Source of the DNA: Octopus vulgaris
Lineage: Eukaryota
NCBI GenBank assembly: GCA_951406725.2
Contig: OX597814.1
Span: 35,836,001-35,900,000, forward strand
DNA: 64,000 nt
Direction: 5' to 3'
Part shown: positions 27,511 to 54,258 of the stretch, piece by piece
Layout: each line of letters begins with the position of its first letter
Position numbering within the stretch: position 1 is the first letter of the stretch
The notes under the pieces: model-generated
The model's input: the letters and a program-made list of their open reading frames with translations, nothing else
The model's database searches: none
What the model was told of the DNA's origin: nothing
Position numbers and translations under genes: made by a program

Positions 27511-28382
27511 GTGACTATTCTGTGGTACAGAAGTATTTTTTACTTCTATTTTAAGCGATGTAGGTGCTCATTTGGTGCCTTCACACACACATATATATAT
27601 ATATATTTCTTGTGCTGACCTAGCAGAGTTAAGACATTTTTAATGTTCACTGGAATTTTTTCCTACCATGCCTATAGTAGATTTGTGAATATTCTGTGGT
27701 ACAGAAGAATTTTTGACCTCTATTTTAAGCGATGTAAGTGCTTGAAACAATTGTAATGCATCACTAACTGATATCCTGTTGCTTAATTTGATTATATATT
27801 ATATATAAGTACATATCTTGCATTGTATGTATATATTTTATTAATTTGCTTGTATGGCTGTTAACTCACTTGCCACCGGTGATGGCATTTCAATAATACC
27901 ATCTCTTCTTATATTTATTTACAAATAATTTCATGAATTTTGTTTGTTTAAATAGTGTTTGGTCACTTTAAACAAAACTTTTGTAAGTATGGTGGGGGAA
28001 AATATTAGCAGTAGTAAGTTGGCAGACTTTGGCTGAAGAAAAAAAGGAACCTATTTGGTGCTAATTTTGAAATCAGTTCCAAGTTGACCGGTATTGGTTG
28101 TGCTGACCTAGCAGAGGTAACACGTTTTTAATGTTCACTGGAATTTTTTCCTACCATGTCTGTAGTAGATTTGTGACTATCCTATGTTACAGAAGTATTT
28201 TTGACTTCTATTTTAAGTGATGCAGGTGCTCATGTGGTGCCTTCCTGTATGTATATATATATATATATATATACAAGTACGTCTTGTATGTATATATTTT
28301 ATTAATATCAATAATTTGCCTGTACAGCTGAACTTGCTTGCCACACGTGATGGTATTTTAATAATACCATCCCTTCTTATAT
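27511..28382. repeat. Local segmental duplication (about 490-bp offset) with rearranged pieces
   Basis: TGTGCTGACCTAGCAGAG...TATTTTAAGCGATG at 27611 and 28099, with a third partial at 27511; TTGCCAC...ATAATACCATC at about 27870 and 28340. Confidence 0.85.
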
Positions 28383-28462
28383 ACATGCATACATACATAC
28401 ATACATACATACATACATACATACATACATACATACATACATATATATATATATATATATAA

Positions 28463-28988
28463 AATTGAATAAGGGTAGAAATTGATGTTAATCAATTAAA
28501 ACCAGTGGCCTAGCATATTAAAAAAATCCGAAGATTAAAATTTTTTATTACATACAAAATTTAAAGGACTGACCGCTAAAAGTGGACGGTCAATATGCTA
28601 GATATAGACGTCAAAATCGCTATTTTCCGCGAAGAATGTGTTCTCAAGAAAAAACTCAGCACAAAACCAAAGTGTAACAAATAAGTAAGACAAACGAAAA
28701 ATATACGAAATCAAAAACTATTACATATGTACCAATCAGTTTCACTTGTTAATATTCATGCATATGTATACACGAAAATCTGCAAGCTCATCAGCATAGT
28801 CTGGTAATCGCATAGGTAATCGTTTTTGATTTCGTATATTTTCATTTGTTTTACTTATTTGTTACACTTTGGTTTTGTGCTGAGTTTTTTTCTTGAGAAC
28901 ACATTCTTCATGGAAAATATCGATTTTAACGTCTATATCTAGCATATTGACCGTCCACTTTTAGTGGTCAGTCCTTTAAATTTTGTAT
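28463..28988 (-). mobile_element. Hammerhead-bearing non-coding mini-element (Penelope pLTR/retrozyme-like) with about 180-bp inverted duplication, inserted in (TA)n
   Basis: 28551-28729 is the reverse complement of 28811-28988; the spacer contains a hammerhead core on the minus strand; flanked by (CATA)n/(TA)n. Confidence 0.75.
28724..28810 (-). ncRNA. Type I hammerhead ribozyme motif (minimal stem III)
   Basis: Minus: cgattaccagactatg-CUGAUGA-gcuug...caagu-GAAA-c ugauug-GUA-cauaug. Stem I uaug/caua plus auuac/guaau, stem II gcuug/caagu, intact core. Confidence 0.75.
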
Positions 28989-29049
28989 ATATATATATAT
29001 ATATATATATATATATATATATGTATGTATATATATGATTATGTGACAC

Positions 29050-29220
29050 ATTACCACTATCCAAGTGGTAACACAGTATCAATACCAAGGGAAAGGCAAA
29101 GACCAGTACAGCTTGGCACCAGTGACATCACAACTGATTCCTACAGCTGAGTGAACTGCAGCAACATGAATAAAGTGTCTTGCTCAAGAACACAATATAC
29201 AGCCCAGTCTGGGAATCAAA
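29050..29220 (-). mobile_element. SINE family C fragment
   Basis: Reverse complement of GATTCCCAGACTGGGCTG...TTCTTGAGCAAGACACTTTATT...CACTCAGCTGTAG...GGTGCCAAGCTGTA. Confidence 0.75.
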
Positions 29221-29410
29221 TACACATATGGCTCTATATGCATATATTTATATACATGTATGTGTGTGTGTGTGTGTGTGTGTGTATGAGAAGTATTGGT
29301 ATCCAGAAAACCCAAAATGGCAGATAAGGCTATGTAATGACTGTAGTTAGACTCTCGGTTCAATAATAATATGATCAAGGAGTTTAATGTGGGTCTTATG
29401 TTAGCATGTA

Positions 29411-29556
29411 TATGTAAAATAAAATGAGACAACACAGCCAAGGCAGTGTGAACTTTTTAAGGCATTTATAAAGAGAGAGGAAGTCTACCTTTTTCTTTGT
29501 AAATGTCCTAAAAATTTCATACTGCCTAGGCTTTGTTGTCTCATTTTATTTAACAT
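29411..29556. repeat. Imperfect inverted repeat (about 70-bp arms, very short spacer)
   Basis: ATGTAAAATAAAATGAGACAAC...AAAGAGAGAGG versus CCTTTTTCTTTGT...GTTGTCTCATTTTATTTAACAT. Confidence 0.85.
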
Positions 29557-50920: not shown

Positions 50921-51162
50921 AATTCTTGATTCAAGCTGTTGCCTTTTTCCACTGAAAACACTCATATTGTTCCACTGAGGAATTATTAAATTTTGTGGCA
51001 AATGAGTCATTTTGACTGTTATTTCTAGCAATGCTGGTACTACTTTGTACCCTTGTCACTTTAGTTATGTTCATAAATTTGCCTTTAAGTTTTAATTGCT
51101 AATAAGCCACCTTCATTATATATATATATGTGTATGTCTGTGTGTGTATGTGTGTGTGTGTG

Positions 51163-51348
51163 CATCATCATTGTCATCATCGTTATCATTTAACGTCCGT
51201 TTTCCCTGCAAGCATGGGATGGAAGTCTGGAAAGCCAGCAGCTGCACCAGGCTCCAATCTGATCCGGCAATGTTTCTACAGCTGGATGCCCTTCCTAATG
51301 CCAATCACTCCAAGAGTGTAGCGGGTGCTTTTTATTTGCCACTGGCAC
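51163..51348 (-). mobile_element. RTE-type 3' end
   Basis: (CAT)n tail plus TTTAACGTCCGTTTTCC...GGTGCTTTTTATTTGCCACTGGCAC. Confidence 0.8.
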
Positions 51349-51639
51349 TTATCAGATATACATACATACATACATGCATACATACATATATATATATATT
51401 TATATAATCCAAATTGTGTGAGTGGAACAGGCAAAATCCAGGTTATATATGTTTCCTAACAAGCAAATCCTCTGATGTAATAATTACTCAATGAGGAGTA
51501 CTTAGCTAGCTACTCTTCAGGCTGAAGATTACATTGTCATTCAGGAATCTCATGTTAACTCGCTGGAGATTCTTTTCAGCTTATCAAACTTCAATATGGG
51601 AGAAGCTGTCAGCATTCGATACCAATAATTTATTATTGT

Positions 51640-51862
51640 AAAGTAGTGAGCTGGCGGAAATGATATCATGCTGGGCGAAATGCTTAGCGGTATTTTGTCT
51701 GTCTTTACATCCTGAGTTCAAATTCCACCAAGGTCGACTTTGCCTTTCATCCTTTTGGGGTCAATAAATTAAGTACCAGTTGCATACTGGGGTCAATCTA
51801 ATCGACTGCCCTCCCCCCCCCAAAAAAAAATTTCGGGCCTTGTACCTAGAGTAGAAAAGAAT
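51640..51862 (+). mobile_element. SINE family B (tail type 2)
   Basis: GAGCTGGCGGAAA...GAGTTCAAATTCC...TTTCGGGCCTTGTACCTAGAGTAGAAAAGAATA. Confidence 0.85.
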
Positions 51863-53719
51863 AAATTATCATTTTTCCTGAAAGTTGTTTTTATACATAC
51901 CACAGACTGCTCGAAGATTACAAACTTCCTGCACTTAGATTCTTAGATTTTATAATTACACACACACACACATGCACGCATGCACACACATACATGCACA
52001 TGCGCATGCATGCACATGTGTGCATACACATATTGATATATATATATATAGATGAATTGGATTAGTTCATTCATTTTGCATTCACACTATTGAGCATATA
52101 TGTGGGTGTATGTGCGTGTGTGTGTATATATATAGATGTATATATATATATATAGATAGATAGATAGATGTGTATATATAAAGACAGACATATATATATA
52201 TATATATATATATGTATATATATATATGTATGAGCATATACATCTACACAGACAGTCACACACACACATATATATGTGTGTGTGTAAATTCATATATATT
52301 TGCAAAAACACTCAGGTAAACTCAAACAGATATAGATCCTTTCAAGACATTACAATTTGTAACTTCTCTCTAACAGTATATTCAGGTGCATTACATTGTA
52401 CATATATCCACGTGTTTTTCTTTTTAGGCTGTCATATCTTTGTCTGGATCGGTAATAATTGATAACTGTTGCTTTTGTCCAAGATTGAATTGCACTAAAC
52501 AAGAAATATCTACCTTGAATTGAACTGTACAATGCAAGAAATCTCCACCTTGATCTATCTACCTATCTACCTGTCTATATTTATGTTCTGTCTATCTATT
52601 AAGTAAACTTGGAATTCTCTTGATATAAAAGTACCACAAAAGTAGCAACAATATTGTTAGTGTCGGTAATAGAATGCTATGACCATGCATATATATACAT
52701 ATGTATATGTGTGTGTGTATACCTGTAGGTATGTGCATGCATGTATATATGCTATATGAATGCACATGAATATACTTAGCTATGTGTGTATGAAGGCAAG
52801 TAGGCAAGTGTAGATGATTGTGTATGTGTGTGTGTGTTACTGAAATCAAAGGAAGTGAGAGTGTTATACAAAGAATACAAGAGTGAGAGAGATCGATAAG
52901 AAAAAAAAAAAAAAATATATATATATATATATATATAAAAGGAAAAGAATGAGAAATCCAGACTTAGTGTTAGGGTAAAAAAACAAGTATACATATGTAT
53001 GAGTGTATATATATATATATATATATATATATATATATATATATATATATATATATATATATATATATATATATATATATATATATATATATATATATAT
53101 ATATAAGTGTGTGTGTGTATTTATGTGTGTTGTATGTATGTATATATGTATGTATATATATATATATATATATATATATATATATATACTCAGTATATGT
53201 ATGTACATTCAAACACCCACACACACACACAGACGCACACATGTGCGAATGGTGATCTAGTTCAAAGAGTATATCGAAAAGTTCTTTTGTAGTTGCAAGG
53301 TTCCGTGGTACTGTACATATTAGAGAAAACAAAATTACAGTACTTTGTCGATGGAGTAGATTCTCTCAGTTTGTGACAATGCAATTTTATGATCCACAAT
53401 GCTTATATTGAAGCAGTTTTAAAAGTTTGTGAAATGAATTAGGATACTACTGAGAGACAGGAATTATTTTTGACTAAAAATGTATTACAAAGAGAAGAAT
53501 GATGTAAAAATTTGTCCATATAAGGACACTTATACATAGAAACATACACATATACAAACACTAATGTACAAACACACACTCATATATATACCAACATACA
53601 GAGACAGGCAAGCCCTAACAAACACACACGTATATGTATGTATGTATGTATGTATCTATCTATCTATCTATCTATCTATCTATCTATCTATATATACATA
53701 TATATATATATATATATAT

Positions 53720-54258
53720 AAGGATAAGATCGTTCATTTAAATTAAATAATGATCTTATCAAGTGGCCAGCATGGAAATAAAAACCTTCAAAGGTAATAA
53801 TTATTATCAAAATTATAACTTAGGGTATCTACAAGATACCGCCATGCTGAAAATAGCAGCCAGGATCTGACTCTAAAACCGCCTTAAGTGTTCATATAGC
53901 ACAAGGAGAGAAGACAAAAAGACAAAATAAAACTAGTAAAAAATTACTGGATAATTCCAGATCCTGGATTTCTGACTTTGCATTTAGAAATGCTTTGCCT
54001 CATCAATGGAATATATGCAGAGAGAAACATAAATACATATATATATATATATATACATATAACATACGAATACTTACATATACGAACGCATACATACATA
54101 TATATGCATGTATGCATCATGACCAGTTTAAAATGTCTGCTTCTTAATTCCATGTGTGATCTAATTAAAACATCACCGCAGTAAATACAATGACGAAATA
54201 AATTTAAATTTATATAATTAAGGATAAGATCGTTAATTTAGATTAAATAACGATCTAT
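53720..54258 (-). mobile_element. Hammerhead-bearing mini-element with about 40-bp terminal direct repeats, in (TA)n
   Basis: AAGGATAAGATCGTT.ATTTA.ATTAAATAA.GATCT at 53720 and 54220; hammerhead motif at 53954-54012 (minus). Confidence 0.7.
53954..54012 (-). ncRNA. Type I minimal hammerhead ribozyme motif (C3-to-U variant)
   Basis: Minus: auucca-UUGAUGA-ggc aaa gcauuu cu aaaugc aaa guca-GAAA-ucc a gg-AUC-uggaau. Perfect 6-bp stem I (extendable), stem II hairpin, palindromic stem III. Confidence 0.7.

Follow-up and report, generated by a model that had tools for sequence, protein, structure and literature searches.

Metazoan retrozymes of the non-LTR type (LTR, long terminal repeat) are non-coding, low-GC, head-to-tail units of ~220–390 nt with one type I hammerhead ribozyme each, for which an origin from, and mobilisation by, Penelope-like elements (PLEs) have been proposed (PMC7229834; bioRxiv 10.64898/2026.07.22.740005). 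PLEs themselves have inverted 5′ arms as well as a tail at one of their ends (PMC8557442), and hammerheads have been published in them in minimal (PMC4209133) and dimeric form (Luense et al., via the review PMC6765202). Within this group, the Hydra clade is defined by an endonuclease with a CxCx5C linker and CxxC and CxH motifs (PMC8557442), and the supplement of the same paper lists Hydra-1_Obim from Octopus bimaculoides as a Hydra element with a hammerhead. For a PLE of the anole, two reverse transcription start sites, cutting of both DNA strands and a predicted dimer have been reported (PMC11167929). Here we analysed a 64,000-nt stretch of the Octopus vulgaris genome (contig OX597814.1, 35,836,001 to 35,900,000), called the window below, with positions counted from its first base. 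It holds three islands with hammerhead-like cores, representing families A, B and C, and an orphan fragment, all of which an earlier note, made from the sequence alone, had read as non-autonomous mini-elements of PLE type.

We consider it very probable that A and C are short non-coding hammerhead units, that the B island and the orphan represent truncated Hydra PLE ends, and that all of them were pasted into (TA)n tracts by a Penelope-type reverse transcriptase (RT)–endonuclease priming from both strands at two fixed RNA starts. A descriptor scan of both strands, in which a counted site required a palindromic stem III and at least four Watson–Crick pairs in stem I, found three type I hammerhead layouts in the window; block-wise dinucleotide shuffles held 0.08 on average, and none of 100 reached three. 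The cores are real and not due to chance. The family A hammerhead lies on the minus strand at 28725–28799 (core 28794–28788, long stem II, GAAA 28743–28740, palindromic stem III, predicted cut 28730/28729), that of family B on the plus strand at 41934–42022 (core 41940–41946, GAAA 42005–42008, predicted cut after 42016) and that of family C on the minus strand at 53954–54012 (layout 54006–53960, predicted cut 53960/53959). At the family level, the CUGAnGA/GAAA/NUH core closed by stem I is intact, with CUGAUGA or CUGACGA at 62 of the 85 family C sites that have a core and UUGAUGA at two. The window's own C copy is decayed and reads UUGAUGA (C3 to U), so that the earlier description of a CUGAnGA core in all three islands holds for A and B only. 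The hammerheads are also not minimal, as had been supposed: stem II is long, with 27–58 nt separating the core from GAAA. The proposed search with Rfam hammerhead models found nothing, either among the 150 matches listed of 188 in the window or at gathering score in seven loci; the window matches were spurious microRNA models on microsatellites. The expectation of a high copy number was borne out in this 2.8-Gb genome, where first-look candidates fell in the range of 3,000–4,000 per island (3,615 for the B end, and 3,090 and 4,041 for the other two), and exact word matches amounted to 2,580 for B, 338 for C and 89 for the A-subfamily word, with none for the reversed controls.

The stems covary, in the test that the earlier note had proposed. 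Base pairs changed on both sides at 8 of 19 positions in a Hydra set (92.6% of cells paired) and at 7 of 12 in the A set (87% paired), compared to 24–46% pairing when partners were slid in these two sets, and in family C a stem I C-G pair switched to U-A together with its partner base. Core positions were kept at 0.99, above the unit averages of 0.96 and 0.93, again in line with that note. This pattern points to selection on the hammerhead fold. Set against this, the alignments (10 and 9 rows) had been chosen by hand, and the same alignments supplied the structure. The foot of stem II is non-canonical in some amplified subfamilies, with a U.U in B1 and about half of A1 and one extra purine ahead of GAAA in C, and such subfamilies may not cleave; full ribozyme activity is likewise questioned by the window copies of B and C, which are further decayed than their families, the base of stem II being mismatched in the B copy.

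Families A and C consist of non-coding units joined head to tail. Mapping 30 loci of each on the full unit gave lengths of 538 nt (A) and 500 nt (C), the last base of one unit adjoining the first of the next. Of 161 A arms, 31 read through the unit join by at least 25 nt, as do 18 of the 208 C arms, and the longest arms (953 nt in A, 820 nt in C) span two ribozymes. The GC content of the units is 30–32%, and they fold better than shuffled sequences (z of −3.2 for A and −6.0 for C, the latter inflated by TA-like repeats). Each family has two fixed 3′ ends, a short one at unit position ~450 in A and ~410 in C and a long one at 538 and 500, respectively. Island C (53721–54256, minus strand) comprises a full unit at 54220–53721, preceded by the last 36 nt of a prior unit at 54256–54221, and its long end lies in (TA)n. 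Island A, taken earlier for a single unit, is in fact two arms placed back to back: a long-end arm on the minus strand (28463–28803, unit positions 201–538), whose 3′ end enters (TA)n, and an inverted short-end arm on the plus strand (28811–28991), which starts at the first base past the predicted cut and ends in (TA)n at unit position ~450. No PLE protein match was found inside the A and C units, and the prediction that they are non-autonomous is upheld by a unit end that joins the unit start with no PLE frame between. By their sequence, then, A and C appear to be retrozyme-type elements without a protein of their own.

The two islands share a terminal motif, as had been noticed from the window alone. 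This tail motif (28502–28516, minus strand, in island A) has 4,873 exact matches in the genome compared to nine for a reversed control, and evidently marks a superfamily of similar non-coding units of ~500 nt. One A-related family of 505 nt has tandem units that are 100% identical and an intact-looking hammerhead, and is very young; its array is two-armed (loci L488–L494, G000:C1:13046784-13049667). Parts of A and C occur in contigs of sequencing runs whose records do not give them as RNA, the query for A in part of these searches being 338 nt of the unit plus flank; the contigs were left unused, since strand, ends, circles and level could not be determined from them.

Family B is of a different kind. 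The window island (41797–42056, plus strand) is a 5′-truncated 3′ end that stops at the short end, and the orphan (27740–27796, plus strand) comprises stem III, the cut site and the short end of a further subfamily in the Hydra lineage to which B belongs. The orphan matches family B at 79%, confirming both that it is a 3′ half and that it shares an end with the B island, and its stem III word is the same as in a young Hydra family. Two paralogous target sites (~27560–27600 and ~28220–28270) are without the orphan insert, and ~20 nt of target beside the TA run have been replaced; these empty sites stem from a local direct duplication at 27504–28402 with a spacing of 470–490 nt. Among B copies, shared sequence reaches more than 3 kb upstream, and when an upstream piece was used to find 30 loci, 24 of them also had, farther downstream, a match to the window island. 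There are 270 candidates for this upstream piece compared to 3,615 for the B end, a gradient such as 5′ truncation would produce. In the longest copies, the sequence extends to an endonuclease frame with CxCx5C and CxxC motifs (by eye), which is 59% identical to that of a sister subfamily, L452, with an open 947-aa RT–endonuclease frame bearing RWK, DKT, YRDD, CxCx5C, CxxC and CxH motifs. L452 itself (G000:C1, frame at ~99949600) has a long Asn-rich linker, an inverted arm of 99% identity and, between frame and hammerhead, a 3′ untranslated region (UTR) of 1.46 kb; its frame is recognised by no Pfam or NCBIfam model.

Genome-wide, candidates for the Hydra endonuclease domain number 18,388; of 30 endonuclease loci, 18 have a match to island B in their vicinity, and a related hammerhead lies 0.6–1.5 kb past the stop codon in 11 of 20 Hydra loci with long open reading frames. 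A six-frame Pfam scan of the 2.4-kb body of B found nothing, the body being 3′ UTR, and a search for an upstream pseudo-LTR (pLTR) on the longest Hydra copy was negative. We assign B to the Hydra clade because CxCx5C and CxxC together form the signature by which the clade was defined in the accessible part of PMC8557442. By eye, the C-terminal endonuclease has the CxCx5C linker, CxxC and CxH and has no CCHH; RWK and DKT precede the RT core in L452, the B assignment on this point resting on the sister and not on B's own RT; and a hammerhead and a (TA)n target are present. B and the orphan thus appear from their sequence to be truncated ends of a protein-coding Hydra-clade PLE lineage, not the non-autonomous mini-elements proposed before, and, having long copies with an endonuclease frame, B does not share the lack of coding capacity that characterises retrozymes. 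The idea that the island sequences would be found as pLTRs of full PLE open reading frames is accordingly supported for B and the orphan, and not for A and C (see below).

All three families show the same insertion footprint. The two fixed 3′ ends are 95–97 nt apart in B and ~86–97 nt apart across families, in (TA)n. They account for 150 of 161 A arms and 192 of 208 C arms, and these classed ends run into microsatellite in 134 of 150 and 154 of 192 cases, respectively, which agrees with the (TA)n-targeted insertion suggested for PLE-type hammerhead retroelements. Where arms stand back to back, they nearly always combine one long with one short end: ~44 of 51 pairs in A, with none long plus long and none short plus short; ~55 of 67 in C, with a single short-plus-short pair and none long plus long; and 12 of 14 listed rows in B, two of which are one locus. 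In the remaining A and C pairs, one end is unclassified. Paired arms are also known from LINE-1 twin priming, where they are without the wide overlap seen here. Because the octopus arms overlap widely and read through the unit join, the template must have been a circle, a multimer or two RNAs.

A simple scheme would produce this footprint. A Penelope-type RT–endonuclease would nick both strands at (TA)n; one complementary DNA would begin at the long site and the other at the short site, both proceeding towards the 5′ end; and the two would then be joined to give back-to-back arms, with a circle, a multimer or two RNAs as template. More tentatively, most templates may have been uncut or religated, and a minority may have terminated at the cut made by the ribozyme, which would leave fewer copies extending past it.

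This last step bears on where the copies end 5′. Arms were sampled through exact word matches located downstream of the cut (for C the first 100 listed of 338, for A all 89 and for B the first 30 of 2,580), and 99, 84 and 30 of them, respectively, were analysed, with 5′ ends called against relatives with an intact ribozyme; calling against the nearest relative was dropped because it overran into TA runs and inverted arms. The 213 anchored arms were reduced to 185 by excluding those that stop beyond +54 and 13 with same-strand sequence upstream, which are mostly internal deletions, two being true TA junctions. From +54 to −2 there were 78 stops in 7,230 nt at risk (1.08% per nt), compared to 20 in 6,101 nt from −3 to −65 (0.33% per nt), so that in the pooled families 5′ ends are ~3× rarer past the predicted cut, in long and short arms alike. 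The best pooled change point was −2, with a likelihood ratio of 13.9, whereas 1,000 simulations at a constant rate did not exceed 8.7. With one arm drawn per locus, it was −2 in 149 of 200 draws and +6 in the other 51, and leaving out one family at a time gave −1, −2 and 0. These stop positions suggest that in vivo the ribozyme is likely to cut or to halt the copying enzyme, and we lean, by a little, towards cleavage with some trimming.

Several observations speak against a simple reading as cleavage. When each family is fitted by itself, the best change point shifts to +16 for A, −23 for C and +7 for B; upstream of its ribozyme, A (39 arms) regains a stop rate of 0.6% per nt; C has a pile-up at +6 to +12; and only six arms start at −2 to 0. 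The pattern as such is a trough that spans the ribozyme, with stops moderately piled up on its 3′ side. In addition, the anole ribozyme is dispensable for insertion in vitro (PMC11167929), and eight of nine frog retrozyme dimers were without cleavage (bioRxiv 2026.07.22.740005). The drop may quite conceivably reflect instead an RT that pauses at the folded ribozyme and then passes quickly through it, or microhomology at hairpins or TA-like words, and to this explanation, which competes only with the cleavage step, we give nearly even weight. It would fit the C pile-up, which coincides with the 3′ edge of stem I plus a small hairpin and not with position 0, the recovery upstream in A and the +6 draws, as well as the report that reads ending at the cut were not found for the anole element (accessible part of PMC11167929). 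It is less easily reconciled with pooled and leave-one-out change points that stay at −2, −1, −2 and 0 despite a distance from cut to start that differs by family and arm type, or with the six arms starting at −2 to 0, where background rates predict 1.2–2.5.

As for A and C, it is improbable that they are only the pLTRs of autonomous PLEs still to be found, their short tandems deriving from truncated reinsertions. Such a relation does hold for B, which proved to be exactly the end of an autonomous PLE, and frog retrozymes are described as homologous to pLTRs (bioRxiv 2026.07.22.740005). The counterpart of this relation in A and C would be an RT or endonuclease frame continuing from the tail motif, and none did so at 134 motif sites or at 70 loci of the motif search when one Hydra and one Neptune-type protein served as probes. 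That no autonomous element with this motif came to light with these two probes is one weakness of our interpretation. Nevertheless, every A or C arm that extends beyond the unit start runs into a unit end with no frame between, and the sister 505-nt family exists as perfect multimers.

Which enzyme moves A and C is a separate matter, and Hydra enzymes seem to us the likeliest candidates, with fair confidence. We prefer them because of the same ribozyme architecture, a similar tail length and one junction, L465 (4696-7970, G000:C15), at which a retrozyme short-end arm stands 5′ to 5′ with a Hydra long-end arm and no TA run intervenes. L465 is, to the detriment of this argument, the sole 5′-to-5′ retrozyme/Hydra chimera among 501 loci and may be a nested insertion; we regard it as weak because one in 501 is, on a rough estimate, about the rate that nesting in shared TA targets could give. 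At a further locus, L337 (772-1250), a C arm passes its long end straight into a Hydra stem III and tail on the same strand, by template switch or nested insertion. As chimeras, L337 was set aside as a possible nested insertion and L382 as a clear one.

The window also holds a PLE relic with an inverted 3′ arm (57024–58984, minus strand), in which the C-terminus of an RT and a GIY-YIG domain occupy 58485–57592; zinc-finger motifs, judged by eye, type its family as Neptune/Nematis. The earlier note's PLE relics are hence confirmed at 57592–58485, and the one at 46475 found no support, having no tblastn match at E 10 to either PLE protein and no relevant Pfam match; a frameshifted stretch at 46467–46718 has a motif resembling the region before a PLE GIY-YIG domain, and no search confirmed it. 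The earlier reading, in which a PLE known from relics in the window mobilises every island as a non-autonomous mini-element, is very unlikely: the 57592 family is young, with intact frames of 839–1,025 aa including the GIY-YIG domain, and inserts at (TA)n with two ends, yet these are ~55–60 nt apart compared to 86–97 nt in the islands, its 3′ region shares no sequence with them, a hammerhead with a stem I was not observed in either of two long loci, and B belongs to a coding element. Nothing ties this relic to the mobilisation of the islands. Elsewhere in the window, 12794–16915 contains a fragmented LINE-type RT relic (RVT_1, E 0.009), and frames at 2768–3067, 4959–5417 and 47678–48067 look, by their motifs, like fragments of mariner-type transposases, for two of which a Pfam search returned nothing relevant.

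Compared to the metazoan non-LTR retrozymes in the accessible parts of PMC7229834 and bioRxiv 10.64898/2026.07.22.740005, A and C are alike in being non-coding, low-GC, head-to-tail units with one type I hammerhead each and in the mobilisation by PLEs that is proposed. They share the lack of coding capacity and the tandem units each with a hammerhead, and depart from the ~300-nt unit with a canonical small hammerhead: at 500–538 nt they exceed the ~220–390 nt of those elements, and they have a long stem II, no Rfam match and mostly dispersed sub-unit copies with PLE-style twin arms. B and the orphan resemble the Hydra-clade PLEs of PMC8557442, as far as described there, in the CxCx5C/CxxC/CxH endonuclease, RWK, DKT, the (TA)n target, a hammerhead near the 3′ end, an inverted 5′-truncated arm and a tail on one end. 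The B lineage is longer than those PLEs, which are under 3 kb in total, with a 947-aa frame, an Asn-rich linker and a 3′ UTR of 0.6–2.9 kb across subfamilies; its tail measures ~95 nt instead of 30–40 nt, and its hammerhead sequence differs from that of Hydra-1_Obim. As in the anole Poseidon element PAc (PMC11167929), two internal RT starts downstream of the hammerhead delimit the tail, and in our scheme cutting and extension would likewise involve both strands of AT-rich DNA. Unlike in PAc, the choice of start site is strictly asymmetric between the octopus arms; and whereas the PAc ribozyme overlaps the start of the open reading frame, with no sign of cleavage in vivo in the accessible part of that report, octopus copy ends change at the cut site. 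In the literature we found no report of octopus retrozymes or of such a step in 5′ ends, although Repbase and the bioRxiv supplements may list families; the main text of PMC13282606 does not mention hammerhead, ribozyme or retrozyme. The classes of element are known, A/C and B are new members of them, and their footprint makes the role of the ribozyme testable.

One speculative extension, which we think rather unlikely as it stands, is that a single Hydra RT dimer holds two RNAs paired through the palindromic stem III, and that separate DNA ends prime them, each RNA at a start of its own, giving one long and one short arm. Pairing would license cleavage, and with it the drop in 5′ ends, and retrozymes would hitch-hike by heterodimerising with Hydra mRNA, as at L465. 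If this were true, the genome would preserve, as a fossil record, the in vivo cutting by Penelope hammerheads and their action as a dimerisation signal. More generally, two questions arise, what the hammerhead does in PLEs and how animal retrozymes move; in the sole biochemical study, insertion in vitro could dispense with the ribozyme, and RNA ends left by cutting were not seen in vivo. Both questions become testable with the octopus genome, whose thousands of dated copies come from coding Hydra elements as well as from non-coding units, share one two-start footprint and show a measurable change of 5′ ends at the cut site.

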